DNA of 20,000 nt from Chiloscyllium plagiosum. Taxonomy: Eukaryota. Under the pieces are notes generated by a model that was not told the DNA's origin, made no database searches, and was given only the letters and a program-made list of their open reading frames with translations. Shown in pieces: positions 1-20,000 of this stretch; position 1 is the stretch's first letter, and every line of letters begins with the position of its first letter. The translations under genes were made by a program, and so were the position numbers. The DNA is taken from positions 2,792,644 through 2,812,643 of the forward strand of contig NC_057758.1 in NCBI RefSeq assembly GCF_004010195.1. Reading direction: 5' to 3'.

Positions 1-115
1 TAGAAATGAAGTATGTTTAATTTTACCAGGCAGAAGAATGTTTTCTGATGGAGAAAGACGTGAAACTAAAATATTGCACAGAACCATTTCTTGCCTGAAT
101 TCATTTCATAGGTTT

Positions 116-1005
116 TTACCTGACGTATCTCCGAATTAATAACCATGGAGATTTTGCCATATTTTTCAACTCTTCTCTGAATTTGCTCTGTGTTGCTGCA
201 TAAATGCAAGGATTTAGAAAGTAACTAAAAAACGATAAGATATTACCAACTTCAATCGCGATAAATTTAGGGTTTGTGAACTTACCTCGGTAATAAACAG
301 TGTTTGTTATTTTGGTAACACCTAAACTCACCGCATTTGTCAACCAGAGCAAGAGAAAACTTACTGATATTGAGAATAACAAAGTGATGGACTTCCTGCG
401 GTTCTCCATTTCTGAGTCACATTTGGTGCTCCGGAGTTCAGTGCGGGTTCTATTTGCCAGGACAATTCGTTGGACAGTTAATGAATTACACAAGACGATC
501 AGTGTGAAAGGAATCCAAATGACACAGGCGCTGTAAAACCAGACATAACCTGTACCTGCAGAAGAAGAAAAGAATGCTGCCTGTGACCGGCAGCCCCACT
601 GCACATTGTTAATAATTTTCTCAGATTCATAAGCAAACAAAACTGGTACTTCCTTCAATACGATCACAACCGTGATAGTTATTACCAGAGTGACTGCAGT
701 TCTTTTAGTGCAATATTTTGTTTGAAACTTCTGGCAACAAATCACGACAAATCGGTCAAAGGTGAAAGAAACAATGCACCAAACAGATAAATCGGGAGTG
801 ACAGCAGACATGTATATAATAACTCTGCAAACAGGAGTATGGGACAGGAATGATAAAGGAAAGTGGTAACTGAAGATGTGATAGACTATTATATTGTTCA
901 TCAGGAAGAGTAGATCTGTTGTTGCCATGGCCAACATGTAAACAGTGATACATTTGGAAAGGCCGCATTTTCTTTGTGAAATAATCCAAATTGTGGCCAA
1001 GTTCG
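116..1005 (-). CDS. GPR139/GPR142-like class A orphan GPCR, coding exon 2 (TM1 C-terminal half to stop)
   Basis: Long open frame with hydrophobic TM segments: MATTDLL (TM2), C..., FTFDRFVVICC (DRY-like, TM3), ECL2 WGC, EMENRRKSITLLF (ICL3/TM6), LNPCIYAATQSKFREEL (NPxxY + helix 8). TAA stop at 116-118. Acceptor on - strand: polypyrimidine tttttttattctatctcatAG|CGAACTTG (AG at 1007-1006). Confidence 0.93.
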
Positions 1006-1110
1006 CTATGAGATAGAATAAAAAAAACTCATCAGTGCCTGATTCAAATTAAGTATGATAACGTCGGTCAATTACATGTGATTAAAACATTCAAAACTCA
1101 TTTAGTCATG

Positions 1111-1407
1111 ATTAGAGTTACTTACAGTGTAGAAACAGGCCATTCGGCCCAATAAGTCCACACTGACCCTCTGAAGCACAACCCACCCAAGCCCGTTCCC
1201 CTACACCTAACACTACGGGCAATTTAGCATGGCCAATTCACCTAACCTGCACATTTTTGGACTGTGGGAGGAAACCAGAGCACCCGGAGGAAACCCACGC
1301 AGACACGGGGAGAATGTACAAACTCCATACACTCTGAGGTGGGAATTGAACCCGGGTCTCTGGCGCTATAAGGCAACAGTGCTAACCACTGTGCCACCGT
1401 GCCACCC
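1111..1407 (-). mobile_element. HE1-like tRNA-derived SINE in the GPCR intron
   Basis: The - strand reads GGGTGGCACGGTGGCACAGTGGTTAG (A box) ... GGGTTCAATTCC (B box), then a central GTGGGTTTCCTCCGGGTGCTC and a LINE-like tail GGGCCGAATGGCCTGTTTCTACACTGTAAG. Possible 6-bp TSD GTCATG at 1105-1110 and 1410-1415. Confidence 0.9.
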
Positions 1408-1799
1408 GTGTCATGTAGCGCTGACATCAGTTTGTAAGGGGGTACAAGACATTCGAAAAATAGGCAAGACCATTAAGAAGCATTATTATCACACCCGCAA
1501 GATGAAGCAAAAGCAGAGATTAAAATGCGAGGTTGATCATAAAATTCTCCAAATTAGTTATTATGAAAATGGCAGCAAAGAAAGTGGTCTCTTGACTCAA
1601 GTATGCAAATAAACAAGAAAGATGACAGGGATCAACACAGAGAGATTACCTATGAATCAACAGGCCCGCCTGTGGGGCAACCGTTGTGCCCATTAGCCCG
1701 GATTGAGAAAATTGGATTAAGTCCTGCTTGCTTCAGAAGTTTCCAAAACATCTTTGAGCAAGTTGATTTCAAAAAATTGGTTTAAAAATGTCAACTTAC

Positions 1800-1869
1800 C
1801 AGGAACAGCTACACATGCAAGTAACGGGTAACAAATCTCTTTCACCAGTAGAATTGCAGCTTTCATCAT
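1800..1869 (-). CDS. GPR139/GPR142-like GPCR, coding exon 1 (MMKAAILLVKEICYPLLACVAVP)
   Basis: ATG at 1869-1867. The exon is 70 nt and ends CCT G|GTAAGT, a perfect donor. The phase-1 join gives ...VAVP-A-N-L-ATIW, restoring the TM1 Asn and a 960-nt, 319-aa CDS. Confidence 0.88.
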
Positions 1870-1998
1870 TTTGTACAACAGTGAATATTTCTGAAGAAGC
1901 TGAAATACTATGATCAGTTGCAGCCGTGGCGCTGGAAGGGAATCTGTATTTATGCATGCATCAATCCTTCGGGGAGTCAACCAGTTACATTAATCACA

Positions 1999-2007
1999 GT
2001 TATATAA
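1999..2007 (-). promoter_or_regulatory. Candidate TATA box of the GPCR gene
   Basis: TATATAA on the - strand about 130 nt upstream of the exon-1 ATG. Support is positional only. Confidence 0.3.
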
Positions 2008-2689
2008 CAAAGACAGAGAATGTTCTTTGGCTGAAATAGTTAAATTAAAGAAACGCGCATTACAAATGAAGTCAATTCTTTGTAAGGCCTGCCGGCACTA
2101 AAGTTGAGGTTAGCTCACAAGAGCATATTCTCACGAGAATCACTTTGGTGTTCATTGAATTCTTTCACATAAACATGCTACTGAGGGACGTTTCAGTTGC
2201 TGTATTCATTGCTCAAGGATATTTTTCCCACCACTAACATCAACAAGCTCATCTTTCAGGAAATTAGTTGGCTTCACCATTTGCTCCCCTCCGCAACCAG
2301 TATTGTCCCTCATAAATGTCTTTTAGTGCGCAAGATAATATTTTGTGATCGCATGCATAAAATGCAAGAATGAAATTTGCGAAGTAATCCCATATGTCTA
2401 AATGTTGCTATGACATTTAATTCTTCCACGAATGGAATATTATTTTTTTAAAAAAAGACCGGGGTTGGCTGTGTTTGCTCACCAGTCTTATTTGTCCAGC
2501 AGCTTTTTCGCAGCCATTCTTCCAGTGTTGCTCTGTTTGCTTTTCTTCTGCATGTTCCCGAATAGCTCATCTCCATAATATGCATGAATACAGTCGCATT
2601 CTGCAAAAGATATCATTCAAATTGCATGTTTTCACCTTTATGCTATTTTATGTGCTATGGTCCAGTTCATACGCTTGTATAAAATTGTA

Positions 2690-3262
2690 TACAGTTGTAT
2701 ACGATTTTGATTCGGCCCAATTTGGAATACTGCGTCCACTTCTGGTCAACACATTAACAAAAGGATGTGGATGTTTTGGAGAGGGTGCAGATAAATTTTA
2801 TTAGAATGTTCCCTGGTATGGAGGACACTAGTTACCAAGAAAGGTTGAGCACATTCGGATTACTTTCATGAGGAAGATCGAGGTTGAGGGGGTCTTGTTT
2901 GATATTAACAAATCATGAGAGGTATGGGTAGGGTGGATAACAAGAAGGTTTTTTGCAGAGTGCGGAACTCTAATCCTGGAGGTCAAGAATTCAAAGTGAG
3001 AGGGGAAATTTTAGGGGAATCTGCGTGCAAAACTCTTTACACAGAGCGTGCTGGGTGCCTGAATGCGTTGCCAGTGATGGTAGGAGAGGTGGACACGATA
3101 GCGTCGTTTAAGATGTACTTGGACAGATACGTGAATGGACAGCGAGCAAAAGATACAGACACTTCGAAACAAGGTGGCAGGTTTATGTAAAGGATCTAGA
3201 TTGGAGCAGGCTTGGAGGGCCGAAGGGTCTGTTCTGGTGCTGTAATTTTCTTTGTTCTTTGA
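2690..3262 (+). mobile_element. CR1-type LINE 3' fragment, degraded
   Basis: Relic RT C-terminus (IRPNLEYCVHFWS, KDVDVLERVQ, MRGMGRVD) followed by the 3' UTR GGGCCGAAGGGTCTGTT and a TTCTTTG-type tail. Confidence 0.85.
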
Positions 3263-3280
3263 ACTTTTTCTATGCATGTA

Positions 3281-3665
3281 TGTTGTGGATTTTCCGGGAG
3301 TGATGCAGTTAGCCCAACCATTGCATTTTCAACAAATGAGAATTTATTTGCAAGATTACCGATTAATACAAAGAAAAGAGAACATAATGTATAATATCTT
3401 TATTGAACCGAAAGCTCAACAGTTTTCCCAACTTAACGATGCTGTTCCAAATACCTGCAAAAATTGCCTTAAATATATCTTTGCTAAAAAAAAAGGGAAA
3501 ATGCAATATTGGTTTTTACAGGTGAAATATCAGACAGAGGGAGGATACACTTTCACTTTTCTTTTTAACTTGAATGCGTTTTGCTTGAGGTAGTATCTGT
3601 TAGCTAGAATTAAATTGGCACAAAAACCCTTTCAACCGAGACACCCTGGAACCCATGTCTTTACA
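3281..3665. repeat. Interspersed LTR-like repeat (related copy at about 8497-8790)
   Basis: Shares motifs GGAGTGATGCAG and CAACT.AA.GA.GCTGTTCCAA with 8497-8660. Starts TG and ends CA, but no clear TSD. Confidence 0.45.
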
Positions 3666-3864
3666 ATCGTTCTAAATATAAAAAAACAAATGGTCCAATA
3701 ACCTTGATTAAGGAGAAGCAGCATCCCAAATGGATCCTGATGTACTTGTTCACCTGCATGACAATTTCTTCGAGCAAGAATTCTCTCCCTGTCCCATTGA
3801 CTCCTTCACACGCTTTCAAAACTTCACCTTCACCTGGACTCTGAACTTTCACCTGAACTCGACA

Positions 3865-4162
3865 TCTTCATTAGAAACTATTGGCCTCACATTGGTCGCC
3901 TCATTTTCTCAATTCCTCAGACTATCTCCCTATTAACTGATTCAATTCCGTGCTCTCTCAGATCCAACCCGAATTGTTTTACTAATCCTGTCACCAAGTG
4001 TGGTGCTGTTGTTTCTTCATTAGAAACTATTGGCCTCACATTGGTCGCCTCATTTTCTCAATTCCTAAGACTATCTCCCTATTAACTGATTCAATTCCGT
4101 GCTCTCTCAGATTCAACCCGAATTGTTTTACTAATCCTGTCACCAAGTGTGGTGCTGTTGTT
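3865..4162 (+). repeat. Tandem duplication, 2 x 149 bp
   Basis: 3865-4013 and 4014-4162 are identical except for 2 substitutions (cctCag/cctAag, gatCca/gatTca). Confidence 0.97.
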
Positions 4163-4483
4163 ATGTGCTCTACTCAAGTCTACATTACAATTGTTGAGGG
4201 CTAGCTTCGAAAACCTCCAGCTACCTCTACTCGGACCATCATTCCGCCATGGCGAACACAACTGTCACGACCGCTGTTTCATCCTGTGATCTTCCGTTGA
4301 CTGCTTCCACGCTCATAGTCTCCCAGCCACACGCAGCCCAATTCTACCTCCTTCCAAAAATTCAGAAAGAGGACTTCCTTGGCATCTTTGTGGTCTCTGC
4401 CCGTTTTTGCCTCTGTTCCAACCCCGATTCGATGTTTTTCTCCTCTTCTTCTGTCCATTCGCATCTGCATCCGCCATTCCCTT

Positions 4484-4947
4484 GACGGCACGTGGCACAG
4501 TGGTTAACACTGCTGTCTCACAGCGCCAGAGACCCGGGTTCAATTCCCGCCTCAGGCGACTCTCTGTGTTTGCACATTCTCCGCGTGTCTGCGTGGGTTT
4601 TCTCCGGGTGCTCCAGTTTCCTCCCACAATCCCAAAATGTGCAGGTTAGGTGAATTGATCATGCTAAATTGTCCGTAGTCACAGCGCCAGAGACCCGGGT
4701 TCAATTCCCGCCTCAGGCGACTCTCTGTGTTTGCACATTCTCCGCGTGTCTGCGTGGGTTTCCTCCCGGTGCTCCGGTTTCCTCCCACAATCCAAAAATG
4801 TGCAGGTTAGGTGAATTGATCATGCTAAATTGTCCGTAGCGTTAGGTGAAGGGGTAAATGTAGGAGTATGGGTCTGGGTGGTAGGTGGGTCGGTGTGGAC
4901 TTGCTGGCCCGAAGGGCCTGTTTCCACTTTGTAAGTAATCTAATCTA
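4484..4947 (+). mobile_element. HE1-like SINE with internal 161-bp tandem duplication, inserted in the Penelope RT
   Basis: A box TGGCACAGTGG, B box GGGTTCAATTCC present twice, tail GGCCCGAAGGGCCTGTTTCCACTTTGTAAGTAATCTAATCTA. 4518-4678 is repeated at 4679-4839 with 4 mismatches. Confidence 0.92.
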
Positions 4948-5867
4948 TATTCAAGTTTCTGAATTTCCAGTTGGCAGGCTGCACTCAGATTTTTTTTCCC
5001 TTGGGACATTCAATTCCTTGACACCTCCACCCCATCAGGGTGGTCGCAGGGCTCCATGATACTGCTTGAAAAAAAGAAGGCCCCATCTACCATGAACGTC
5101 TTCTGCCTGGCCTAGCTTGTGATCACCCTGAACATCTGCAGTTTTAAATCCTCTCACCTACTCCACGTTCCTGCATGGGCCACAGTGAAACCTGTCTCTT
5201 TGTGGGCTGTGTGAAACTTTTCTTGTTTCAGTCTGACCACAGGCCCCACCCACAGCTCTTTCTAGGGGATGTCCATGATTTTATCCATGCTGCTTCACTG
5301 TCTCGATCGGAATTTTAAACGTTTATCTATTTCACTTCCAATTTCCACCCTGATCTCATCTTCACCTGGTCCACCTCTGACATGGTCCCTTCCCTTCCTC
5401 AAAAAATCTATTTGGATTTCTGGTGATATATTGCCCACCAATAACCACTATAAGCCCACTGACAATCACATTTAGATTGACTATATATTCCGCACCCTGC
5501 TTTCTCTGAAGACTCTATTCCATTGCCCCAGTTTATCCGTCTTCATCACATCTTTTCTCAAATTGTCAAGGTTGGTGGGAGGACCTTCGAAATGTGCACC
5601 TTTATAATCAACTCAGGATTCCACAGCAGTCTTGCTACAGGGCCCCCAGCTGGATTCGATCTGTCTCTCACACGTCAGTCCTTCCTCTCTTCCCCCTTAC
5701 AGCATCAATAGAGTTCACCTTATCCTCACCCACCAGCATCAACATCATGAAAAATATTAGCCGCTATTTCCGCCATTTCAGCAGGTTGCCAAAACTAGAC
5801 ACATGTTCTCCTCCGTTCTGTCAGCATTCTGCAAGGACCATTCCAGCCGAGGAACCCTTGTCTATTC

Positions 5868-6433
5868 TGTGACGATGCTGTCCGTTTAACAACGTTATTA
5901 TATCCTTGGATTTTTAAAGAGAGGTCGTAAATGCAGAGGTGTCGCGCAGTCTGGTAAAAGCTTAGTTTACCAAAGGCATGGGAGTGCCTGTGTCTTCCAT
6001 TCAGGTTTTTTTCCGGTTTGGTTTAGCTGTGGCAGTCACAAGATGTTTGAATCGAGGATAGGGCAGTAGACTTCATCGTATGGTTCCTGACTGAGATTCT
6101 CTGAAATCTCTTTGGATATTGTTCCCTGCTGCCTGCAAGAATCTGTGTTTGAATTTACCCTTTGTGTAAGGGGTATGTTTATGGAATGATACCGAATTAG
6201 TACATTTCCTTATTTACGGTACTGAACCGGTACCAATAATTTTCCAACAGTGACGTTTTTCTCTTTTCCATTATCTTTGGTTCGTCTTTCGACTGCAGTG
6301 TTAAAATGAATTCTGTTTTGTTTTAAGCCGAGTGTTTTGACCAGCTGCACCATACCTGGAATACCCATTTCATATCTGCTTTGGAAATCAGAAAGTTAGC
6401 GTGTAAGCAACACGGCGCCACAGTCTCATGGCA
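5868..6433 (+). mobile_element. Probable solo LTR inserted in the Penelope element
   Basis: A non-coding 566-bp block, TGTGAC...CATGGCA, splits the Penelope frame between the RT/linker and the GIY-YIG. Flanks TATTC (5863-5867) and CATTC (6434-6438) resemble a 5-bp TSD with one mismatch. Confidence 0.6.
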
Positions 6434-6883
6434 CATTCTGTAGATTTGGAGATTCTATAAATCTTGCCTGTTTACTCCCTCACTCTTCACACTCCAAGGT
6501 ATCATTCAGGGTTTTATCTGCACTTCACTGTATCTAGTCTACTCTATTCACTGATTGCAATGCCGTGCCCTCCACCCAGGGGGAACTTAAACACAGGTCA
6601 TGTGACCACTTCGTTGCCCCACTACATTCTGTCCACAGAGACCACCCTGTGGCTTTTCAATTCAACACACCACCGTATTCTCTGGCAAACATCTCCATCT
6701 GAGGCTTGCGGCAGTGAAGCTCAGCACAAGTTACAAAATCAGCACCTCATTTTCCACTTGCGAACCCTGCAGCTGAATATGGAGCTCATCAATTTTAGCG
6801 CTCTAGCACCTTCCCCTATGCTTTTGCTCAAACCCACACACCAAGTCTAGTCATTACATGAACCAATACCACACACTGCCCAT

Positions 6884-7388
6884 TAGAACATAGAACATAG
6901 AAGAATACAGCGCAGTACAGGCCCTTCGGCCCTCGATGTTGCGCCTATCCAAGCCCACCTAATCTACACTAGCCCACTATCCTCCATATGCCTATCCAAT
7001 GCCCGCTGAAATGCCCATAATGAGGGAGAGACTGCTACTGGCAGGGCATTCCATGAACTCACGACTCGCTGAGTAAAGAACCTACCCCTAACATCTGTCC
7101 TATACCTACCACCCCTTAATTTAAAGCTATGCCCCCTCATAATAGCTGACTCCATACGTGGAAAAAGATTCTCACTGTCAACCTATCTAAACCCCTAATC
7201 ATCTTGTACACCTCTATCAAGTCACCCCTAAACCTTCTTTACACCATTGAAAACAACCCCAAGTGCCTCAGCCCTGCCTCATACGATCTCTCTACCATAC
7301 CAGGCAACATCCTGGTAAACCACCTCTGCACCCGTTCCAGTGCCTCCACATCCTTCCTATAGTATGGCAACCAAAACTGCACACAATA
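6884..7388 (-). mobile_element. CR1-type LINE 3' end, young
   Basis: (TAGAACA)n tail on +, GTACAGGCCCTTCGGCCC 3' UTR, and ORF2 end RGHSFKLRGGRYRTDVRGRFFTQRVVSSWNALP. Confidence 0.92.
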
Positions 7389-8083
7389 NNNNNNNNNNNN
7401 NNNNNNNNNNNNNNNNNNNNNNNNNNNNNNNNNNNNNNNNNNNNNNNNNNNNNNNNNNNNNNNNNNNNNNNNNNNNNNNNNNNNNNNNNNNNNNNNNNNN
7501 NNNNNNNNNNNNNNNNNNNNNNNNNNNNNNNNNNNNNNNNNNNNNNNNNNNNNNNNNNNNNNNNNNNNNNNNNNNNNNNNNNNNNNNNNNNNNNNNNNNN
7601 NNNNNNNNNNNNNNNNNNNNNNNNNNNNNNNNNNNNNNNNNNNNNNNNNNNNNNNNNNNNNNNNNNNNNNNNNNNNNNNNNNNNNNNNNNNNNNNNNNNN
7701 NNNNNNNNNNNNNNNNNNNNNNNNNNNNNNNNNNNNNNNNNNNNNNNNNNNNNNNNNNNNNNNNNNNNNNNNNNNNNNNNNNNNNNNNNNNNNNNNNNNN
7801 NNNNNNNNNNNNNNNNNNNNNNNNNNNNNNNNNNNNNNNNNNNNNNNNNNNNNNNNNNNNNNNNNNNNNNNNNNNNNNNNNNNNNNNNNNNNNNNNNNNN
7901 NNNNNNNNNNNNNNNNNNNNNNNNNNNNNNNNNNNNNNNNNNNNNNNNNNNNNNNNNNNNNNNNNNNNNNNNNNNNNNNNNNNNNNNNNNNNNNNNNNNN
8001 NNNNNNNNNNNNNNNNNNNNNNNNNNNNNNNNNNNNNNNNNNNNNNNNNNNNNNNNNNNNNNNNNNNNNNNNNNNNNNNNNNN
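7389..8083. other. Assembly gap (695 N)
   Basis: Run of N. Confidence 1.
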
Positions 8084-8322
8084 CTCCATATGTGGAAAAA
8101 GGTTCTCATGGTCAACCCTATCTAAACCCCTAATCATCTTGTACACCTCTATCAAGTCACCCTAAACCTTCTTTTCTCCAATGAAAACAGCCCCAAGTGC
8201 CTCAGCCTTTCCTCATACGATCTTCCTACCATACCAGGCAACATCCTGGTAAACATCCTTTGCACCCGTTCCAGTGCCTCCACATCCTTCCTATAGTATG
8301 GCGACCAAAACTGCACACAATA
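8084..8322 (-). mobile_element. CR1-type LINE fragment, near-duplicate of 7150-7388
   Basis: Encodes MIEVYKMIRGLDRVDHENLFP. About 18 differences over 239 nt relative to 7150-7388 by manual count. Confidence 0.9.
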
Positions 8323-8496
8323 GGATGTCTGGTCTGGCCCATAACCCCATTAATAGCTATTTATTCCCTCAAGCTAAACTGTAATCGGACAGCGGTTTGT
8401 CTCTCATTGTCTATATTATGGACAAGGCCAAACCACCTCAAAACATTTCAAAATGTACCTGGGGCCTAACTTGTTTTAGTTACTATAATCAGTTGT

Positions 8497-8790
8497 AAAT
8501 GGGATGTTCCAGGAGTGATGCAGCTGGCTCAGCCACACAGGTGTAATCAAAACATTTACAGACTACTGAATGAAACACGACCCGAATTTAGAATAACTTG
8601 ACCTATCTGAAAACCCAATCGGGCCTATTGCAACTGAATGACGCTGTTCCAAGTAATTATAACATCCTCATAAACACTCCTAGGCATATAAAAGGTAACA
8701 CAGATTATTATAGGAGAAATGTCAGAGAGAGAGAGAGAAAGAGAGAGAGAGACTCTCTGCCTCTGATCAACCATGTTTTCATTCATTAAT
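8497..8790. repeat. Interspersed LTR-like repeat fragment related to 3281-3665, containing a (GA)n tract
   Basis: Shared motifs GGAGTGATGCAG and GCTGTTCCAA; (GA)n at about 8724-8752. Confidence 0.45.
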
Positions 8791-8930
8791 TCAAATTGTG
8801 TCCCATTGCAGGCAGGTTATCACTCTCACACACACGCATGCACACGAACAGAGACGCAGACACATACAGGGACACACACGCATACACAGACAGAGAAAAC
8901 ATAGTAGTATGAACGTATATAACATCAAAT

Positions 8931-10510
8931 ATACAATGAACAAAGAATATTCACAGTCCAGGAACAGGGCTTTCAGCCCTCCAAGCCCGAGCTGATCCAA
9001 ATCTACTGTCTAAACGTGTCGCTTAGTCCTTAAGCATATGTATCCCTCGGCTCCCCATCTAGTCATGCATCTGTCCAGGGACATCTTGAATGAATCTAAT
9101 TTGTCTGCTTCTACTACCTCTGTTGGCAACCCGTTCCAGGCACCTATCAAACTCGGTGTAAAGTACTTGCCGCGTGAATTCCCCATAAGCATTTCACCTC
9201 TCACCTTGAAAGCTTGACCTCTCGTTATTGAATCCTTCACTCTGTGAAAAAGCTTTTCTCTATCTACCCTATCTGTACCCTTGGTGATTTTGTAGACGGC
9301 AATCAGGTCCCTGCTCATTTTCCTTTTTTTGTAATGAAAACAAACCTAACCTAACCTCTCTTCATACCTCCCTTCCATACCAGGCAACATCCTCGTAAAT
9401 CTTCTCTACACCCTCTCCATAGCGTCCACCTCCTTTTGGTAAAGTGACGACAAGAACTGTACAAAGTATTCTAAATGCGGCCGAAACAACGCGTACAATT
9501 TTAACATGACCTGCCAGCTCTTATACTCAATAGTCCGTCCAATAAAGGCAAGCATACCATCTGCCTTCTTGACCACTCTATCCATCTCTGCAGCAATCTT
9601 CATTGTACAATGGACCTGAAATCCTAGACATCTCTGCTCATCAACTTTTCCCAAGGCTCTTCCGTTTAATGTATAATTCACTCTAAAATTAGACATCCCA
9701 AAATGTGTCAACTCACATTTGCCTGGATTGAACTCCAACTGCCTCTTCTCCGTCAACTCTTCAAGCTATCTATATTCTCCTGTATTCTTTGACAGTCCAC
9801 TATGCTTCCTGCTATTCCACCAATCTTCGTATCATCTGCAAACTTACTGATCAGACCAACAATGCCCTCTTCTGGATCATTTCTGCATATTACAAACAGC
9901 AGATGTCAAAGCACTGATCCCTGTGGCACAGCACTGGTCACCTTTCTTCATTTCAAGAAACTCTGTTCAACTACTACTCTCTGTCTCCTGTTGCTCAACC
10001 AGTTCTTTATCCACCAATTAGAACACGCTGCACACCATGTGACTTCACTTTCTCCATTAGTTTGCCATGGGAAACCTTCTCAATCGCCTTACAAAACTTC
10101 ATGTGTATGACAACTGCAGACATTCCTTCATCTATCAACTTGGTCACTTCCTCAAAGAACTCTATTAAGTTGGTAAGGCACGATCACTCCCCCTCACACG
10201 GTCCACACATAAATCCGTGCTGCCTATCACTCATAAACCCATTCTCCTCTAAATATAAATAGATTTTTTCCCTCAGTACCTTCCCCAGCAGCTTTCCCAG
10301 CACTGCCCTCAGGCTCACTGGTCTGTAGTGAACCAAAACATCCCTACTATCTTTCCTGTACAGGGGGACAACATGAGCAACCCTTCAGTCCTCCGGCACC
10401 TCACCTGTGTTTAAGGACGCTACAAAGATATTTGACAGGACCCCGTTTATTTCTTCTCTATCTTCCCTCAGCCACCTTAGATCGCTCGCATCCGGTGCTC
10501 GGGAGTTGTC
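8931..10510 (-). mobile_element. CR1-type LINE, 5'-truncated ORF2 (RT) plus 3' UTR, frameshifted
   Basis: Relic RT peptides QLEFNPGKCELTHFG, LKLYALFRPHLEYFVQF, DLIAVYKITKGTDRVDREKLF, GAWNGLP. The - strand also reads VPQGSVL (~9910-9930) and SKFADD (~9830-9850). Confidence 0.92.
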
Positions 10511-10730
10511 CACCTCAATAACCTCTAGCCTACACAAACACTCAGACACTTATAGATACACACACAGACACTCAAAATGCTACGGTATATTATCAGGGAA
10601 GAAGCCAATCTTTTTAATAAATTCAAGGTCATTTGCACTAACTGTGCATGTCTCTACTTGGTGCTCAGACAGGCAGAGAGCTTTTGATTAATCACGTTTT
10701 ATTTCACTCGTTCAGAATATGCCTCATTAT

Positions 10731-10758
10731 TCTCTCTTTCTCTCTCTCTTCCAGTCTT

Positions 10759-10792
<34 letters not shown>
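10731..10792. repeat. Compound (CT)n(CA)n microsatellite
   Basis: Seen directly in the sequence. Confidence 0.9.
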
Positions 10793-11029
10793 GGAAAAAG
10801 ACTGACAGATGAAATGGGATGGAGCGGTTAACGTGTGAATAGAGTTTGGCTAAGCTCATGGTGTTTTATTTGTACCAGATAGAGATGAATCCTATTTGAG
10901 GTTCATTTGATTATGAGAGTCACGGGCAGAGTAGGTACGATGTAACTGCTTCACTTAACCGATTGTCAAGAACAAAGATAGTAAAAACAAATAAAGTTTC
11001 ATTTTGTGGTTATGGGCAGGGTAATATAC

Positions 11030-11245
11030 GGGACTGAGGGAATACGTTTTAACTCAGAGAATGATAGGGTTCCGGAATGCTCTGCCCAGGAGGGCAAGCT
11101 GAGGCGGGAAGACCACAACTATTTAAAAAAAAATTGCAGGATATAGGCTTGGTATGGCAAAGTGTGCTCATGTGGTTTTAGTACATGTTTGGCAGTAGAG
11201 ACCTGAAGGGCTGAAGGGTGTTTTTGGTGGTCTGTTATTCCATAA
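11030..11245 (+). mobile_element. Old CR1/L2-type LINE 3' fragment
   Basis: TQR-IGFRNALP-like relic (ACTCAGAGAATGATAGGGTTCCGGAATGCTCTGCCC) and a GGGCTGAAGGG tail. Confidence 0.65.
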
Positions 11246-11309
11246 ATTCATAGGTCTGTCTGAGGAATCAAAAATCACATTGGATCCAATCTCTCTACAA
11301 AAAATGAGA

Positions 11310-11890
11310 ATTTTAGAAGTGTTACAGTGCACAAGGAAGCAATTTCAGCCAGTGTTTATGTACTGGCTCCTAAAAGGGGTACACAGCTTGTACAATACTG
11401 CAGCCGCCTCTCTGTCATCCTCTCCATTCATCACTTCCAAATATACATGCAACTCTCTTCTGAAATCTCCTCCACCTCCACTGCCCTCCCAGGAATTGCA
11501 TTCCAATTCCTAACAACTCTGAGTAATAGCACCTAATGGTACAACAACAGGGCAGTACAAAAGCACAGGGACCTGGAAATTTATGTGAATATTTTCGAAT
11601 GGTGGCACAACAGTTTGAATGATTTGTTAAGAAGCACATGCAAATCCTAGCAACTCTTGGCCTAAAGAGATTTATCCTTATCTCATTCCCACCTCTCTTG
11701 TTGACAAGCTTGGAATTATAATCCTATTTACTGACCTATCAACAGGTTGAAACTAAATATTCTTCTTTATCCCGCCAAAATTATTCATAATTTTCGACAC
11801 CTCAATGAAGTTACCTCTTCTCTGCAACGAGGCGAACAAGCCGAATTTCTCTAGTCTTTCCTTATGGCTAAAATCCCGCATCCTTGGTGG
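11310..11890 (-). mobile_element. Old CR1-type LINE 3' fragment with an internal oppositely oriented piece
   Basis: MRDFSHKERLEKFGLFASLQRRGNFIEVSKIMN relic, WNA-like GGAATGCAATTCC, and a 3' UTR-like end near 11310. Confidence 0.7.
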
Positions 11891-12250
11891 ACCGTACACA
11901 CTGCCGCTACTGTGCACCAGCGGAGGAGTGGGTGAAGGACTGCAGATGTCTTGCCAATTAAGTGGGCTATCTTTCCAGAAATAGACCATTGGCGGAGTTA
12001 CACCAACTCAGGCAATTCGGATGCTTTCCACTGTAATCCTGAGTTGCACCTTGTAAAGAGTGAATGGCGTCTGGGGAGTCAGATGTTGACGTTCTCGTAC
12101 AAGTCTTCCAAGCCTCTGAACTGCTTTTGCACTTTTGTATTTATGTGGTAATATTTGTCTTGCATTCAGTTTCAGATCAAGAGTAAAGTAGAGAATATTA
12201 ATCGGGCGTGTTCAGAAGCAGAGAGAAGCTCCCTGTCTTTAAAATGTTGG
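11891..12250 (-). mobile_element. Highly degraded LINE RT C-terminal fragment (CR1/L2 group, second family)
   Basis: The - strand has CTGACTCCCCAGACGCCATTCACTCTTTACAAGGTGCAACTCAGGAT (LTPQ...LYKVQLR) and TTGATCTGAAACTGAA (D.KLN), resembling LINE RT C-termini. Confidence 0.55.
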
Positions 12251-14300
12251 ATTTGGTCTTTCTTGACGACATGTTGCAGAACAACCCTGCTGGTAGATGT
12301 GTTCCAGGAATTATATTCATTGATTACTGGAGAGTGGTTATAGGATGTCACATCAGAAAAATATGGTGTTTGATGTAACCTTGCCATCATTAGCGTTCAC
12401 TGATATATTTCCCCTTCTCATTTAAGTGGTTTCAAAAACCTGATTCTCCGTAAACATTAGTTCCCTTCTGTCAGGATATTCTGTACACTTCAGACAATAG
12501 TGCAATGGTGTTGTGGATGGGGTACTGGTGTGGCGACCTAAGACTAAAGTTGACAATATGTTCGCTTGGTTTTTTTGCAAATAACACAAGATGGCTGAAA
12601 GGGTCTGTCAGTTACATACAGCAAATGCGCATAGCTAAACTTGCTATCTTCATATAGATATATTCCATAAGATGAGATTCTCCAGATGAAGCATTATGAT
12701 GGAGGTCAAACAGCTCTCCGCAAACAGGCAATTGTCAGTATATAAGCATTTTGAAAAGGGGCGTTTTTGTAAGGCATAGTTTAACCGTGGTCCAAACTTT
12801 GATATTTACTGCAAGGTAGAAAGAACGGTTTGATGCTGCCTTGTTCAGAACTGTTGTGATAATTGAAGAATTACGAAGGCAACAATCAAGCTAAAAGTTA
12901 ATTGTATTCCTTAAGGAAACGTTTGTCATCAATACAAAATCCTAATGCACTGTTCGGAAAGGTAAAATACTGAATACGACATCAAAAAGTAACAAACGCA
13001 CAGAAAGTGGGTGTGGGATGGGCAAGGCAACAGAAGTCACGATTAGGGAAAGATTAGCAATTGGAACCTAAGTTCAGATTTTGATAATTCGAACAAATTC
13101 GTACATCCAAAGATTAAGGCACATTAAAATTAAAAGTACAAAATAAAAAATGGCTGTGCTTTAGTTATTTGTGGAATCTTAACGAGTTTCATTTAATGGC
13201 TTGAGAAAGTTGTAAAGTGGTTGAATTTCACTCTTTTGCGTGTAATTCGAACCAATGTCCTTATTCAGAAAAGAGAGTTAGTAATAGAACGTGTTTAGAG
13301 TGGGAACAGCAAAGGTTTATTTTCAAATGAAACTTCAGTTTAAAATCCAATTACAGGAAGTAAGTAGCATAAACAAAGTTGTAAGTCAGACAGTCTTGCT
13401 TTTTTGCCTTAGGCTGAAGTGAGAGAGTTACTGTTCTCCAATTGTCAGCTGTTGATTATATCAGTGTTGATCTTATCACATTTATAGCAATTGATATAAA
13501 TTAATGTCCTTTCTAATCTACCATTCTCAAGTTAGTACAAAACTTGTAATAGTCCTTCGTGAGGTTTTTCATCAATAAAGTGTTGCAACTGACAAACATC
13601 TCGGAAGGACTAAAACTGAAAGAAACTTTGTAAGACCGCAAACACACATGATGGAGATATCTTGCAAACATTCTGAGATTGCAGGAGGAACTTAGGCTAT
13701 CTATAGAGTTGTCCATCATCGATTGCGTTTCTTTTTAATTGTTTATTTATGTTCGGGGTATATGCCTAACAATGACATCGATGTTGCATGCAATTACTGT
13801 AACACGAACGGAAGTAAAATTTTGCATTTCCCTGGGGAATCCAAAGCATGCACTGAGCTGTCAAAAGAGGGAATTTCTACTCCAACCCAAAGGTGGATAC
13901 GGGGTAATCTCTGGTCTCTCACACATATGTGAAACATAGCTCTGAAGGAGCGAAGGAGCGCAGGACTTCAGATTCCCCTATGACATTTCTCCCTGCAACA
14001 GATCTTCTTGCTATTTTGAGCTTCCCGAGTGTTATTAAAAATGCACTTGTCCCCGCAATGAGTGAGGCACCTTGGAGTGAGTGGTCGGACGTCAGGCAAT
14101 CGGGGGTGCGTCACATTTTGATAGAATGCATGGGACTCTTGATAACATTGCAACCAAAATATAAATAATATTGACTCAGTTAAGTGCCTGATCAATTGTA
14201 ACTCCTGGGATTTTCTCAACAGCTATTGACTCATAGAAATTCAATTGAGAGGCTTGGGGAGACGCTTGAAGTACCTACTGGAAATGTTTTATTTTTAAGA

Positions 14301-15229
14301 TCAAGTTAGACTCAGTCCAATCTTTTTCTGTGTTTTTTGAAGCTCATCACCACATCGAGCATATTGCATCATAAGAGTGAAAGGATATTTCAGCATCTGT
14401 TTAAACTGGTTTCGGAACATAGTCTGTGTCACAGCATAAATAAGAGTGTTTGTGCAGCAACTCAAGAGCTGCAGCATGAAACCCATTTCTTGTACAAGGT
14501 TAGACATTCAAAATGATACATCGCTGAATAAATACTTTCGCTCCCATACAGAATAGACCATTAACATTGTCCACAACAACATAAAATTAGCCGACAGTAC
14601 AAATAGTAAAATGATGGATTTCCTTCGACTCTCCACTTCTGGATCTTTGGAATTCTTCTCACTTCTGTGGGCCCAAAGTCTTCTGCGGGCTCTACTGGTT
14701 ATTAAAATGTGTCTGACAGTTAAAATATTCAGAAATAGGATCAAGACAAATGGAACACATGTGATCAGAATGTAATGTAGAAAATCAATTCTTGTCCAGA
14801 GCAATGTCACCTGCTTCTAGAGAACAAAACCAGCGAGCCCTCTGAAGAATATACATGAAGTACCAGAAAATATTCTTTAAGCAGCTAAGTGCAGTTACTG
14901 TTCCCAGAACCACAGCTGCTGTTTCGTCATTGCAATAGTCATGTTTTTGTTTCTGGCAACAAATCGCCACAAATCGATCAAAGGTGAATGTGACGGTGAA
15001 CCTGACAGAACAGTCAGTAGCTGCATAAAGCAGGATGGCGTGGATATTACACACAGGAAAGGAATACAATAAATAAAACTGCTCCCATTAAACAATCGGA
15101 ATGAATCTCAATATGACGTCGAGCACAATGACCATTAGATTGCCACTGCCATGGTCTCCAGATAACGACTGATGGAGCCAGAGAGACCACATGATCTGCG
15201 AAAAAGGATGAGGATCGCTATGATATTAG
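14301..15229 (-). pseudogene. GPR139/GPR142-like GPCR pseudogene (exon 2 equivalent)
   Basis: Acceptor tcacAG|CTAATATC at 15231-15230, same phase-1 site as gene 1. Motifs: (A)NIIAILILFRRSCGLS, YAATDCSV, FTFDRFVAICCQK, DPEVESRRKSIILLF, CTNTLIYAVTQTMFR. Lesions: 1-nt deletion at ~15140, TAA at 15088-15090, frameshift at ~14810-14850, in-frame TGA at 14508-14510. Confidence 0.9.
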
Positions 15230-15337
15230 CTGTGAGGGTGAGAGGTACATGTTTAATCTAGTGACCTGTTGAATTTAAACATGACAACCAATTCTGCATT
15301 GCAACGAATAGAAATATTGGCCCATCATGCAGATGAA

Positions 15338-15600
15338 GGGCGGCATAGTGAATCAGTGGCAATCAGTGCTGTCTCACAGCATCACGGATCGGGATTTGAT
15401 TTCAATCTCGGGTGAGATTCTGTTTGGAATTTTCACGGCTCTACAGGGGTTTCATCCCACATTACAACAATGTGCAGCACAGATGACGTGGCCATTAGTG
15501 ATGTAGATTAACAAGGGTAGAGATTGGATCTTAGTGGGATACTGTTCATTGAATTGTTGTTGGGCTGAATGGCCTGTTCCTACGTTGTAGACATTCTAAG
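15338..15600 (+). mobile_element. Old, degraded HE1-like SINE
   Basis: GGGCGGCATAGTG...CAGTGG, CTGTCTCACAGC, a decayed B box, and the tail GGGCTGAATGGCCTGTTCCTAC. Confidence 0.75.
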
Positions 15601-16223
15601 AAAGTTCTAGTTTATACAGTCGTCATTAAATGTCTGTTACCTTATTCACAAAACTACAACTGAGAAAGTTTGTCATCTCTATGCCCTCTACAATGATTTG
15701 TCGACGTGTTCTCAAACTTGCGTCATTTTCGCACTCTTCCCAGAAATCGACAATTCACTGAGTATTCAGTTGTCTCTCTGTGTTCTCGAAGCATTGTCTT
15801 TAAACACTTAATTATTATAATGAACTAGAGCAAAGAAGACACCGAGAAATGAGGTTATTGATCGAATAGGAAAATGGATAGAACAATTTACAAGTGGCAG
15901 TGGGTTCCTGTTGTGAGATTAGTATTGACTTATAATCATTTCCAGATTCCTACTCCTTATGATGGCACTTTCAATAAAGTTTTTCAGCAGTCATCAATTC
16001 ATCTGTTATTCTAGTCTCTGTTTTGAGATTCTGAGCTTTAAGGTCTTGTGGGGGTCTCCTTACCTCACAATCAGCGTTCAAATTCTGCGATGTATGCACT
16101 CTCCATGGTTTGATGTTATATCAGCCATTTCTTGATAAAACACAAAACGAGCGCCTCTCAACGGTATTAAGAGTTTTTGTTTTGTTTGGGGAAAGAAGGA
16201 CTGACCTGACAATCTGACAATTG

Positions 16224-16427
16224 TCATAGCATTAGAATGGTGCTATACAGAAAGAGACCCATCACTCTAACACGTCTTTGTGGACCGGATAACATAAATT
16301 AATCTAGTCCCATTTGCCAGCAATTGGCCCAAACACTTTCAAAACTTTCCTATTTTTGAAGCCATGCAGATGCATTTCAAATATTGCAATTGTACCAATC
16401 TCCAGCACGTCATCTGCAAGCCAATTC
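16224..16427 (-). mobile_element. Old CR1-type LINE 3' fragment
   Basis: TAATCTAGTCCCATTTGCCAGCAATTGGCCC and TTGTACCAATCTCCAGCAC are typical of the reverse strand of CR1 3' ends. Confidence 0.65.
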
Positions 16428-16550
16428 TCAACCTGCCCTCTCCAACCCCTTTATCTGTACCTCCCCGAACACCCACCCCAAGCGTTGAAGAAAGATGATA
16501 CATGAAACGTCGATTTCTCCATCTGCTGATATTGCCTAGCTTGCCGTGTT
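16428..16550 (+). mobile_element. Penelope-like 3' terminal fragment with a decayed hammerhead-like core
   Basis: CCCCTTTATCTG...TTGAAGAAAG...GAAACGTCGATTTCTCC...CTGAT...TGCCGTGTTC matches the layout of Penelope terminal repeats (CTGANGA...GAAAC). Confidence 0.55.
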
Positions 16551-17395
16551 CCTTCTTCAGGAATGAGGAAAGTTTGTCCAGCAGGCTAAGATAAAAGGTA
16601 GGGAGGAGGGACTTGGGGGAGGGGCGTCGGAAATGCGATAGGTAGAAAGAGGTCAAGGTGAGGGTGATAGGTCAGACTGGGGTGGGGGCGGAGAGGTCAG
16701 GAAGAAAATTGCAGGTTAGGAAGGCGGTGCTGAGTTCGATGGATTTGACTGAGACAAGGTGGGGGGAGGGGAAATGAGGAAACTGGTGAAATCCGAGTTC
16801 ATCCCTTGTGGTTGGAGGGTTCCTAGGCGGAAGATGAGGTGCTCTTCCTCCAACCGTCGTATTGTTGTGGTCTGGCGATGGAGGAGTCCAAAGACCTGCA
16901 CATCCTTGGTGGAGTGGGAGGGGGGGTTGAAGTGTTGAGCCACAGGGTGGTTGGGTTAGTTGGTCCGTGTGTCCCAGAGGTGTTCTCTGAAATGCTCCGC
17001 AAGTAGGCGGCCTGTCTCCCCAATATAGAGGAGGCCACATCGGGTGCAGAGGATGCAATAGATGATGTGTGTGGAGGTGCAGGTGAATCTGTGGTGGATA
17101 TGGAAGTTTCCTATGGGGCCTTGGAGGGAGGTGAGGGGGGAGGTGTGGGCACAAGTCTTGCACCTCCGGCGGTTGCAGGGGAAGGTGCTGGGAGTGGAGG
17201 TTGGGTTGGTGGTGGTTGTGGATCTGACGAGGGAATCACGGAGGGAGTGGTCTTTACGGAATGTTGATAGGGGAGGGGAGGGAAATATATCCTTGGTGGT
17301 GGGGTCCGTTTGGAGGTGGTGGAAATGACGGCGGATGATGCGCTGTACATGGAGATTGGTGGGGTGGTAGGTGAGGACCAGTGGGGTTCTGTCCT
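16551..17395 (-). mobile_element. Young Penelope-like element: GIY-YIG endonuclease and 3' UTR
   Basis: DRTPLVLTYHPTNL...CNRRRCKTC...HIIYCILCTRCGLLYIGETGRLLAEHFREH. After a single in-frame TAA at 16956-16958 the same frame continues AQHFN...EEEHLIFRLGTLQPQGMN. Confidence 0.95.
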
Positions 17396-17606
17396 CCCAC
17401 CCTGCCCCTTGTAAAAACGCCATCCCATTCTCCCAATTCCTTCGTTTCCGCCGCATCTGCTCCCAGGAGGACCAGTTCCAAAAACGTACAACCCAGATGG
17501 CCTCCTTCTTCAAGGACCGCAATTTCCCCCCCGACGTGGTCGACGATGCCCTCCACCCCATCTCTTCCACTTCCCGCTCCTCCGCCCTTGAGCCCCGCCC
17601 CTCCAA
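17392..17606 (+). mobile_element. Inverted 5' segment of the same Penelope element (RT thumb/linker)
   Basis: The + strand encodes SSHPAPCKNAIPFSQFLRFRRICSQEDQF...SSALEPRPS, the region that normally lies directly upstream of DRTPLVLTY (same order seen in the old copy at 5490-5740). Confidence 0.9.
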
Positions 17607-17823
17607 AAAAAACCTCTACATAGATTAATGGTGACCTCGGTTCGGTGCGTTTATAACAAAAACAGTGCGAAAGTTGAACTCTCACTAAACAGGATGGATG
17701 TAAAATATTCGACTTGAAAGGCAGCAGAAATCCTGGATAAATCAGTGAATTCCCAAGCAACTATCTATTCAATTGTGTGCACACTTCCAGTGTCTACAGA
17801 ATTTCATCTGGACATACTGCTAT

Positions 17824-17968
17824 CCTCCCAAAGTCCAGAAATGAGCAGGTTAGACGGAGTAGCCGTGGAAAATGGCTTGATAGGGAGGAGGGGTGTTCTG
17901 CACTTCACAGGGTTGGCGCAGACTCAGTGAGCTGAATACCCACTTTCTACACTCTCAGTATCCTATGT
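17824..17968 (+). mobile_element. Degraded SINE 3' half (HE1-like)
   Basis: CCTCCCAAAGTCCAGAAATGAGCAGGTTAG matches the SINE core at 4621-4650, followed by a GTGAGCTGAAT...TTTCTACACT tail. Confidence 0.6.
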
Positions 17969-18332
17969 GAGCCTACTGTAACAAAAACAATGTAATGAAA
18001 CGGCAAATAAAACTCTCATATTTACATTTAAATCAATACTTTATGTTCGTGAAAAATGCCCTGATAAGTCCGAGGCAAAAGTCTTCAAAATCAAATGTCC
18101 TTTATTTCAACAACAATCCTGATTAGACTGGGCAGCAGGTTAATACATAGCAAATACTGCAGCGACCAGGAGTCAAATGAGAAGTAAAGAAAATAAGTGG
18201 AATAAACTCATAATGGTGAGTATTTAGTTTTTAATACCTGGGCCAGTGTTATTGAGAATAGAAACTCTACTAAGACTACATTGCGGCCAAAATGTACTAT
18301 TCTCCCTCACCTTCATCAGATTTCTTTCTTTA

Positions 18333-18600
18333 AACCATAAGAAGTAGGAGCAGAATAACACAACTTAGTTTATCTAGACTGTTCCACCTTCCAGTGAGAT
18401 AGTGGTTGATTTGATCATACTCGAACACGCATCCTTCTGTCTCCCACAAGCCTCGATAACATACATGATGACTCATTTGCAACAGCCTTCTACATTGAAG
18501 AATTCTACAGCCTCACTGACCTTTGAGAGACAATTCCTCGTTATCGCTGCCTCTAATGGGAGACACATTATAGTGAGATTGTGCTCAACAGTTCCAAATA
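18333..18600 (-). mobile_element. Old CR1/L2-type LINE 3' fragment
   Basis: ACCATAAGAAGTAGGAGCAGAA tail start and AGAATTCTACAGCCTCACTGACCTTTGAGAG (reverse of the SQR-V-LWNS motif). Confidence 0.6.
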
Positions 18601-19684
18601 CTCTTCACATGCACTTTGTCTGTAAAACTAAGAATCTTGGAAGATTAAATAAAGTCACATTACAACGAGCAGAAGACTCTGCGATGAGGAAATCTCTTTG
18701 AGATACTGAGAATCTTGAGAAGATATTTTTCTGTGGTGAGACTGATATTGACGCTGGGTTCTTCAAGTTTGTGTGAAGAGACGAAACAAGCTTCAAATAA
18801 TAATAAAAATGCAGACGTGATAATTACAACAAGTTATCAAAAAGAGTACTGTCAGGATCTGGAGCTTCCTCCATGAAATTGTAGTAGCCACGATCTTAAC
18901 CAAGACTCAGTTCTTCAGATGGAAAAGAAGATAGAATAGAAACATTTTTGAGCAATAGAAAAGGAGTGGGAATGGCGATAGGAATATTTCATATATTCAT
19001 CAGTTGCTTGGTGAGCTGGATGGCCGAGGCTGGATGGTCTGATGTGATTCTGTGAGCAAAAGAAAGCGTGTATGTGACTGAGAAACCGAATGACGTGACA
19101 GAATGTATAGAAATAGAGAGGCTCTGCCAGAAGCAAGAAAACAGGTATATCGAATTGAAAACGCGAGACTAACAGCACTTTGTGAAAAAGACAGGATCCT
19201 GGGGTTGAGTGGGATCTGAAATAATTGAGGGAGTCGAACACAGTGATGATCATTTTTATTTCCAAACCTCGCCCAAATGGGACTATTTGATCGATGTGAG
19301 CACAGGCGTCATATAAACTTGGTGTCAGTTAATTAGTGACTGACCAGCATCGGGTGATTTGCAGTTAAAGGAAGCTTATATCTTTGGAGTCCGATTGGGA
19401 GAAGAATCGATCACCAGAGTGATCACCCAACGGATGAGATTTGATTTTGCAATGGTTTCAGGCGGATTGGAGATGGACTCAGTGATGGAGATGGTTGGAC
19501 GCAGTTAGTTTAATTTATGGACTGGACTTCCTGACTTAATATGGTCGTACACAGCTCAGGCTGATGGTGTCATTGCATATTGCTGGGTGTGATGATGAGT
19601 GAAGAGACTGACCTCGGTTTCCAAAGGTTTGCCGAAGAAGTCGAGCAGCACACTGATGCATTTTTTTTTCCACTTTGAACATAA

Positions 19685-20000
19685 CCCTATGAGGTGAGGC
19701 CATACTGGATTTGGTTCTGGGTAATGAACCAGGCCAGGTGTTAGAATTCGAGGTAGGTGAGCACTTTGGGGACAGTGACCACAATTCGGTGACTTTTACT
19801 CTAGTGATGGAGAGGGATAAGTGTGCACGACAGGGCAAGAGTTATAGCTGGGGGCAGGGAAATTAGGATGCGTGGCTTGGAAAAGTAGGCTTCAAGGCAA
19901 GGGGGCAATTGATATGTGGAGCTGTTCAAGGAGCAACTATTGAGTGTCCTTGATAAGTATGTACCTGTCAGGCAGGGAGGAAAGCGTCGTGTGAGGGAGC
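19685..20000 (+). mobile_element. CR1-type LINE ORF2 fragment (APE endonuclease C-terminus), running off the window
   Basis: Encodes GEAILDLVLGNEPGQVLEFEVGEHFGDSDHNSVTFTLVMERDK, containing the LD and SDH motifs of APE endonucleases. Confidence 0.9.

Follow-up and report, generated by a model that had tools for sequence, protein, structure and literature searches.

The question raised by this locus is whether two receptor genes on the same strand of a shark genome belong to a system of chemical sensors. The first-pass annotation thought so. The window considered here is the whole stretch of DNA that was analysed, 20,000 nt long, and it holds one complete gene (gene A) and one broken gene (gene B). 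We argue that both are members of a large elasmobranch family that probably originated from an ancestral orphan receptor and diversified into a sensor repertoire, judging from sequence comparison. It is worth establishing first what each gene is.

Gene A is on the minus strand. Exon 1 (1800..1869) is 70 nt long, begins with ATG and ends at a GTAAG donor, which gives 23 codons plus 1 base and reaches the middle of TM1. It is the sole match in the window to an exon-1 profile of the family (iE 1.4e-08). The phase-1 intron (1006..1799, minus strand, 794 nt, GT..AG) has a SINE-like repeat inside it at about 1110-1403. Exon 2 (116..1005, minus strand) is intact and runs from the remainder of TM1 to the stop codon. 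The spliced coding sequence of 960 nt encodes 319 aa with no internal stops. Two further minus-strand elements are consensus matches only: a TATA-like element (1999..2007) about 137 nt upstream of the ATG, and ATTAAA, a possible polyadenylation signal (16..21), about 95 nt past the stop. The protein matches 7tm_1 in Pfam (E 2.9e-19) and nothing else there at E<=0.01. Its predicted structure has 7 helices and an ECL2 hairpin (pLDDT 74). Such hairpins are found in many peptide receptors. Foldseek matches the model to class A receptors with TM-scores of 0.61-0.76, but a fold search is unable to rank class A receptors against each other; peptide, chemokine and lipid receptors are listed with similar scores, and GPR139 is not among the matches listed. 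The switches are all present (N1.50, D2.50, DRF, P5.50, W6.48 and NxxxY), as are the TM3-ECL2 cysteines (C83 and C162), while P6.50 is replaced by Thr. By its domain, predicted fold and switches gene A is an intact class A (rhodopsin-like) GPCR.

Gene B is a pseudogene. Its exon 2 (14301..15229, minus strand) carries two frameshifts and two stops: a frameshift near 15139, a stop codon at 15090-15088, a frameshift near 14802-14817 and a stop codon at 14510-14508. A frameshift-aware alignment finds the same four lesions against 6/6 paralogues. An assembly error is unlikely since there are four separate lesions and two of them are nonsense codons. The acceptor AG at 15231-15230 is at the same phase-1 position as in gene A. 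No exon 1 of gene B was found in the window; a search of 15230-20000 with two profiles of that exon, and by tblastn with 120 proteins, gave nothing convincing. The first-pass description of one intact and one dead copy is therefore correct. So is its account of same-strand paralogues with a common phase-1 intron and three shared motifs, on which the acceptor position and the alignment agree.

It does not follow that A and B are local tandem duplicates, as had been proposed. They find each other by tblastn at E 2e-31, yet only 111/286 aligned residues (39%) are identical. They also fall in two deep subfamilies, and each subfamily has ray members in the tree. On that evidence the two subfamilies split before sharks and rays diverged, and the genes are not recent tandem twins. 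Even their adjacency rests on scaffolding, because an assembly gap of 695 N (7389..8083, no strand) lies between them, flanked by two 240-bp copies that are 92.5% alike. A third gene of the family was not found within the window. The window is rich in remnants of LINE, SINE and Penelope-like elements; 22 tandem repeats were found in it, and Rfam gave 0 matches. The differences between A and B are concentrated on one side of the protein. On the outer side the identities are 3/26 in the pocket, 7/40 in the rest of the outer TM segments and 6/40 in the loops, against 38/70 for the inner TM segments and 26/57 for the cytoplasmic regions on the inner side. The divergence is thus one of outer versus inner face. 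Wide divergence had been noted for the extracellular loops and TM5-7; the loops bear this out, but TM5-7 is not the right division.

How large is the family? The numbers come from the annotation of sharks other than the window's own species, so they are lower bounds. Two family searches at E<=1e-3 returned 901 and 857 clusters, and the two sets may overlap. The matches listed number 240, all of them distinct and picked for their similarity to the queries; 238 are named proteins of sharks, representing 12 species. Heterodontus alone has at least 65 clusters (90% identity) with 132 member sequences. Among the large clusters 9/10 contain named proteins from a single species. In several of them the accessions from one contig run almost consecutively, which implies recent arrays, and 19/30 of the Heterodontus rows of subfamily A are on a single contig. 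In some clusters near-identical copies are spread across many scaffolds. With arrays, species-specific duplicates and a pseudogene, the expanded birth-and-death family related to GPR139 that had been suspected in sharks is real. It is lineage-specific for elasmobranchs as a whole, rays included, but not at any narrower level. The named best matches listed are all labelled as GPR139-type or other peptide receptors. OR, TAAR, V1R, V2R and T2R membership was ruled out, given those labels and the lone 7tm_1 domain of gene A. Matches in the ESM Atlas were confined to this family and to generic 7tm_1 clusters.

The next issue is where this family came from. True GPR139 and GPR142 are missing from our tree, as a motif check found neither among the 419 proteins collected. 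The elasmobranch rows fall together in a single clade (95/87), and its sister is a gene of amphibians and sturgeon (100/99). The 46-row side joins the coelacanth and fish orphans (100/99), and these orphans branch outside the clade of shark and amphibian genes. The closest non-shark matches are an amphibian orphan (E 4e-27) and a coelacanth orphan (E 2e-25), which themselves score just 53 and 70 bits against human GPR139. By these comparisons the closest bony-vertebrate relative found is the amphibian/sturgeon orphan and not GPR139. One-to-one kinship with GPR139 or GPR142 does not hold, as the nearest relatives are amphibian and coelacanth orphans and the family is multi-copy. RefSeq labels the amphibian/sturgeon gene 'probable GPCR 139' (e.g. 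XP_069092602.1 in Pleurodeles). Each of 20 amphibian species has one cluster of it, and it is likewise seen once in a sturgeon. Two amphibian proteins that were checked are 29-31% identical to gene A.

The shark family still belongs, on profile evidence, to the wider GPR139/142/GPR210 lineage, apart from other peptide receptors. Against solved structures the family profile matches GPR139 best (human 7vug and 9m42; E 7e-15, 58 bits), and CCR1, the next cited, scores 47 bits, about 11 bits less. Gene A as a lone query does not retrieve GPR139 at E<=0.001. Two exons are common to GPR139/GPR142 (PMC7318219) and the shark family. At 3.25 the alignment shows Asp in GPR139, where the shark family has retained C3.25 together with the ECL2 cysteine. 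Unlike GPR139 and GPR142, the shark family has many copies per genome. The wider lineage consists of receptors for W/Y/F-amide peptides (PMC8557429). GPR210A/B of Rinne et al. (2019, PMC6504862) are orphans from coelacanth and fishes with kinship to GPR139/142, and the 'Orphan 139-like' and 'NMOGPR' genes named in a table of PMC5207463 are in the same group. The coelacanth UniRef H3B118 cluster and H3BBB8 in our tree are likely two of the three sets of Rinne et al., judging from accession spacing. The text of that paper (PMC6504862) contains no 'shark', 'cartilaginous' or 'Callorhinchus' and reports no expansion.

One can imagine a scenario where the receptors work like GPR139 in the endocrine system or brain, all of them answering one type of endogenous ligand (aromatic amino acids or amidated peptides), and where extra copies serve dosage or tissue specificity. 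GPR139 is the best solved match, W6.48 is shared with GPR139 and kept in 225/227 members, H5.42 is kept in 172/227, and in subfamily B the deep pocket hardly varies and has Y/F at 3.33. The binding site itself argues otherwise. The residues required for Trp/Phe activation of GPR139 have been mapped (PMC5430874), and the site F3.33, H5.43, W6.48, R6.51, N7.38/39, E3.32 reads A, Y, W, N, N, S in gene A, with numbering set by offset to about +/-1. In GPR139 itself, Ala at 3.33 makes Trp/Phe much less potent (PMC5430874). Across the family Arg/Lys at 6.51 occurs in 0/227 members, E3.32 in 0/227 and N7.39 in 6/227, and P6.50 is mostly gone too. A and B have just 3 of 26 pocket residues in common. 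We therefore consider the single-ligand scenario very improbable. By alignment the Trp/Phe site of GPR139 is gone from the shark family, and the amino-acid sensing suggested at first pass is not supported in its GPR139 form, since the required residues are largely replaced.

The pocket of the amphibian orphan is GPR139-like and almost invariant, with F3.33, W6.48, K6.51 and N7.39 in 20/20. All of the following entropies were computed without kinship correction. The pocket is the lowest region in the 20 amphibian orthologues (0.05) and the highest in subfamily A (1.58, against 0.72 for inner TM), and because of this a ligand-diversified repertoire fits. Subfamily B reaches 1.84 in its loops, but no difference is seen between its pocket and its inner TM (p=0.29), which counts against the sensor reading. 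The diversified ligand-binding face is thus the pocket in subfamily A and the loops and rim in subfamily B. Regional identity and entropy agree that the cytoplasmic face is conserved and the ligand face variable, as the first-pass annotation had it. In recent duplicates 190/1174 extracellular positions vary versus 108/1280 intracellular ones. There is no pocket excess among them (35/260 versus 55/400 in other outer TM), so they give no sign of selection directed at the pocket, another point against sensors, and the outer-face variability could be relaxed constraint.

This bears on whether most copies were simply carried along by segmental duplication in repeat-rich regions, with a few that matter and the rest drifting to pseudogenes. 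Gene B is dead, transposable-element remnants are plentiful in the window, and some clusters have their near-identical copies on many scaffolds. Gene A may itself be drifting because it deviates at 10 near-invariant family columns, where the median is 4 and only 2/117 members deviate at as many. We still regard this as a poor bet. The invariant switches (N1.50, D2.50, DRF, P5.50, W6.48, NxxxY and the TM3-ECL2 cysteines) are kept in hundreds of full-length models, variable positions in recent duplicates are about twice as frequent on the outer side as on the inner, and deep subfamilies older than the shark-ray split persist.

Thus the sensor repertoire remains our preferred reading. The family would have grown from one ancestral orphan receptor that is still present in amphibians and sturgeon. 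Each member is predicted to bind different outside chemicals, and the conserved cytoplasmic face suggests that all would share a G protein. The ancestral basic residue at 6.51 appears to have been lost and two pocket acids fixed (D3.37 in 203/227, E7.36 in 223/227), which would suit positively charged ligands. Subfamily A would then have diversified the pocket itself, and subfamily B would have kept its deep pocket fixed while its rim and loops diversified. The ligands are most likely peptides or amines. We consider it likely that this is an undescribed set of chemical sensors, catalogued as 'GPR139' with a rebuilt pocket. The OR, TAAR, V1R, V2R and MRGPR/FPR families likewise have tandem arrays, pseudogenes, duplicates confined to one species and a ligand face that varies, although the shark family has a different ancestry from all of them.

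Where such sensors would be used is less certain. Chemosensory cells of the nose, mouth, skin or gut are the leading but still tentative suggestion, with sensory-nerve or immune surveillance next. A stronger version is that this is the largest elasmobranch chemoreceptor repertoire, a new vertebrate chemosensory family with hundreds of members that serve the nose, mouth or skin, derived from a neuropeptide-receptor lineage kept single or lost in other jawed vertebrates. We find that version somewhat doubtful. Two observations count against the preferred reading: nearly all catshark olfactory neurons are TRPC2/Go microvillous, which fits V2R use (PMC10116579), and the top 50 brain-plus-olfactory transcripts include no GPCR (PMC11979771). 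A V2R-dominated nose would agree better with receptors that leukocytes, mast-like cells or skin sensory neurons use for surveillance, tuned to cationic peptides from microbes, parasites or damage in the manner of mammalian MRGPR/FPR and not to smell or taste. That likeness is functional only. The birth-and-death pattern fits surveillance equally, the pocket acids favour it, and MAS1 and its relatives are absent from cartilaginous fishes (PMC8455134). The profile's preference for GPR139 over CCR1 does not, and we judge surveillance unlikely.

The literature searched holds no description of an expanded GPR139-like family in sharks; the catshark supplement and Yun et al. 2015 are outside its coverage and may bear on novelty or expression. 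The supplements of PMC8455134 have no GPR139 entry and one GPR142 orthogroup label, and the readable supplement files of PMC12361510 have no GPR139 entry. The latter study removed families with >100 copies ahead of its expansion analysis (PMC12361510), a step that may partly explain why such a family went unnoticed. Cartilaginous fishes have been described as having a paucity of GPCRs (PMC8455134), and shark counts are 6-13 for OR, 3-5 for TAAR, 2-4 for V1R and 8-43 for V2R (PMC10116579). The clusters of one Heterodontus species exceed each of these. The amphibian single-copy sister gene provides an ancestral reference for ligand work. If the chemoreceptor reading is true, the idea that elasmobranchs tell chemicals apart with only a few dozen receptors would have to be abandoned. 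Whichever tissue is involved, the picture of sharks as animals with few receptors changes when one automatic label hides a family more numerous than all four known olfactory families.

The minus strand of the window carries two related class A GPCR genes, A and B, with a 695-base gap lying somewhere between them. Gene A has two exons, 1869-1800 (70 nt) and 1005-116, separated by a 794-nt phase-1 GT-AG intron, and its 960-nt spliced frame encodes 319 aa without an internal stop. It scores 70 bits against Pfam 7tm_1, and the structure predicted for the exon 2 product from an input alignment of 96 sequences has seven helices and an ECL2 hairpin (pLDDT 74). Gene B starts at 15229, and its first exon is undetectable anywhere in the window. 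Frameshift-aware alignment finds the same four lesions with 6/6 paralogues. The first-pass annotation described an intact and a dead gene sharing a phase-1 intron and three motifs. This description holds: the acceptor position of B matches that of A, and both genes have all three motifs.

A Penelope-like retroelement remnant lies at 16782-17400 on the minus strand (weak GIY-YIG match, E 0.015, under the Pfam cut-off). Decayed LINE remnants, presumably CR1-type, lie at about 8934-10540 on the minus strand and at 2707-3261, 7150-7388 and 8084-8322 (weak RVT_1 match, E 0.0019, and mutual matches). Two family models in RefSeq, P0025 and P0083, have N-termini that match the LINE remnant at 10102-10028 and 10519-10406, so LINE-derived errors may be present among the annotated first exons. 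Two tandem repeats, each made of two nearly exact copies (149 bp at 3865-4162, 161 bp at 4518-4839), and a 240-bp repeat that flanks the 695-base N gap (7150-8322, gap included) are possibly assembly artefacts.

The proposed copy count was made by protein searches and gives many clusters in other sharks. Exon 2 of gene A retrieves 901 clusters (90% identity) from 1859 candidates, and the best 120 of the 901 are all named shark proteins, headed by Stegostoma at 74%. Since this is the closest match listed and none is marked as the window's own, gene A seems to be absent from that protein collection. The C-terminal part of gene B retrieves 857 clusters from 1030 candidates, the best 120 being 118 named shark proteins and 2 unnamed ones. 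The two listings of 120 rows share no row. By hand tally the matches listed in both searches cover 12 species and 504 member sequences. Among them Heterodontus has at least 65 clusters (132 members), Heptranchias at least 60 (178) and Pristiophorus at least 32 (69), where member counts may take in isoforms or other species. Stingray and skate have family members too, and no chimaera protein is among the members found here. Two Heptranchias proteins, P0121 and P0122, score 294 and 288 bits with the gene B query against about 189 for neighbours with much the same identity, an excess suggestive of internal duplication or fusion in these gene models.

Relatives of gene A (A-type) are concentrated: among the matches listed, one contig holds 19 of 30 Heterodontus rows and another 10/10 of those from S. 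canicula. Relatives of gene B (B-type) are scattered, with 35 listed Heterodontus rows over 26 contigs. Of the ten large clusters inspected, one combines two Scyliorhinus species, and in each of the other nine all named proteins come from one species; one of the nine also contains two short unnamed fragments. In several clusters the accessions on a given contig are near-consecutive, as would be expected of recent tandem arrays. One can imagine that the copies are passengers, which we consider unlikely. What is established for the family is that its switches are intact, that its cytoplasmic face is conserved and its outer face diversified, and that it includes arrays as well as dead copies.

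When 21 family members are combined into a profile, the solved structure that matches it best is human GPR139 (58 bits; the next has 47); gene A as a single query does not retrieve it. An exhaustive search finds nearer non-shark relatives in salamander, coelacanth and teleost orphans. Searching with the salamander protein gives 25 proteins, of which 20 are amphibian clusters with a different lead species in each, four are elasmobranch and one is from a sturgeon; there are no amniote or teleost matches. A phylogeny had been proposed, and our tree (55 rows, LG+G4, with 9 distant receptors as the root, of which one is a named snail protein and the rest are unnamed) places the GPR139-like orphans, while true GPR139 and GPR142 are missing from it. 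A and B group with 28 named and 4 unnamed proteins in a family clade of 34 rows (support 95/87), and the amphibian and sturgeon gene is the sister of this clade (100/99). The coelacanth and teleost orphans branch outside this grouping; from accession spacing only, they likely correspond to the GPR210 sets in excerpts of Rinne et al. (PMC6504862). The gene A clade has 13 rows including stingray and skate members (98/95), and the gene B clade has 18 including a skate member (97/91). Therefore A and B diverged before the shark-skate split, put at about 259 million years ago in a passage of PMC12361510, and do not form a recent tandem pair. The amphibian and sturgeon orphan (P0336, P0396-P0415) is present once in each of 20 amphibian species and a sturgeon and has an almost invariant pocket. 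It carries a GPR139 label yet is distant from GPR139 (53 bits), and is perhaps a receptor without a name of its own that merits deorphanising.

This gene is the key control for pocket entropy. In its 20 orthologues no region is more conserved than the pocket (0.05; inner TM 0.37), while in A-type receptors (117/120 listed rows) none is more variable (1.58; inner TM 0.72). Across gene A and its 120 listed relatives, mean entropy is 1.57 at 26 pocket-facing positions versus 0.95 at 138 other TM positions, and 1.32 in outer versus 0.73 in inner helix halves, with positions assigned by offset from x.50 anchors and possibly off by one. In B-type receptors (110/120 listed rows; per-site detail from 114) the deep pocket, at 0.71 versus 0.39 for inner TM, is not more variable (p=0.29); the loops are, at 1.84. 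Ten recent clusters (90 sequences, after removal of two short fragments and of one member from another species) have variable positions at 190/1174 extracellular versus 108/1280 intracellular sites, counted, like the entropies, without regard to kinship. This agrees with the claimed conserved cytoplasmic and variable ligand faces. In these clusters, however, the pocket (35/260) shows no excess of variation over the rest of the outer TM positions (55/400).

According to parts of PMC5430874 and PMC7318219, GPR139 holds Trp/Phe between F3.33, H5.43 and W6.48, and the charged ligand backbone by N7.38 and, by modelling, R6.51. The amphibian gene is alike, keeping F, W, K6.51 and N in 20/20. The shark members are unlike: R/K6.51 and E3.32 occur in 0/227 and N7.39 in 6/227, and the acids D3.37 (203/227) and E7.36 (223/227) are near-fixed. 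Gene A has Ala at 3.33 and deviates at 10 near-invariant columns (family median 4), 8 of them shared with its Stegostoma relative. Cytoplasmic-loop cysteines are also conserved, an ICL1 pair in about 200/202 filled rows and three in ICL2 (residues 37, 42, 113, 114 and 122 of gene A), and are perhaps lipidation or metal sites.

We argue that a basic anchor would have been swapped for two acids in the shark lineage. Together with descent from W/Y/F-amide peptide receptors (PMC8557429, in part), this points to peptides or amines as the probable ligands rather than free aromatic amino acids, so the suggested GPR139-like amino-acid sensing does not fit. Endocrine use like that of GPR139 is very improbable. 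Many receptors with different ligands would share one downstream G-protein route. The sequence evidence makes a sensor repertoire the more probable reading, and chemosensory cells are the preferred site. Two observations speak against use in the nose: almost every olfactory neuron of the catshark is a TRPC2/Go microvillous cell (excerpts of PMC10116579), and the top 50 brain-plus-olfactory transcripts, as given in part of PMC11979771, have no GPCR. Sparsely expressed receptors would not be expected in such a list. A surveillance role in immune cells or in nerves of the skin is a distinctly weaker candidate than a sensor repertoire.

The sequences are already catalogued in RefSeq as 'probable G-protein coupled receptor 139'. 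A table of PMC5207463 gives two families, 'Orphan 139-like' and 'NMOGPR', as unclear; the likely source of that table is Yun et al. 2015. Our literature search, with most subscription papers outside its reach, found no published description of the elasmobranch expansion. The present analysis adds three things: a sister gene in amphibians, the contrast in the pocket and the finding that the GPR139 site has been lost. The observation is real and reaches beyond two genes, to a GPCR repertoire of elasmobranchs that evolves by birth and death and has apparently not been described.
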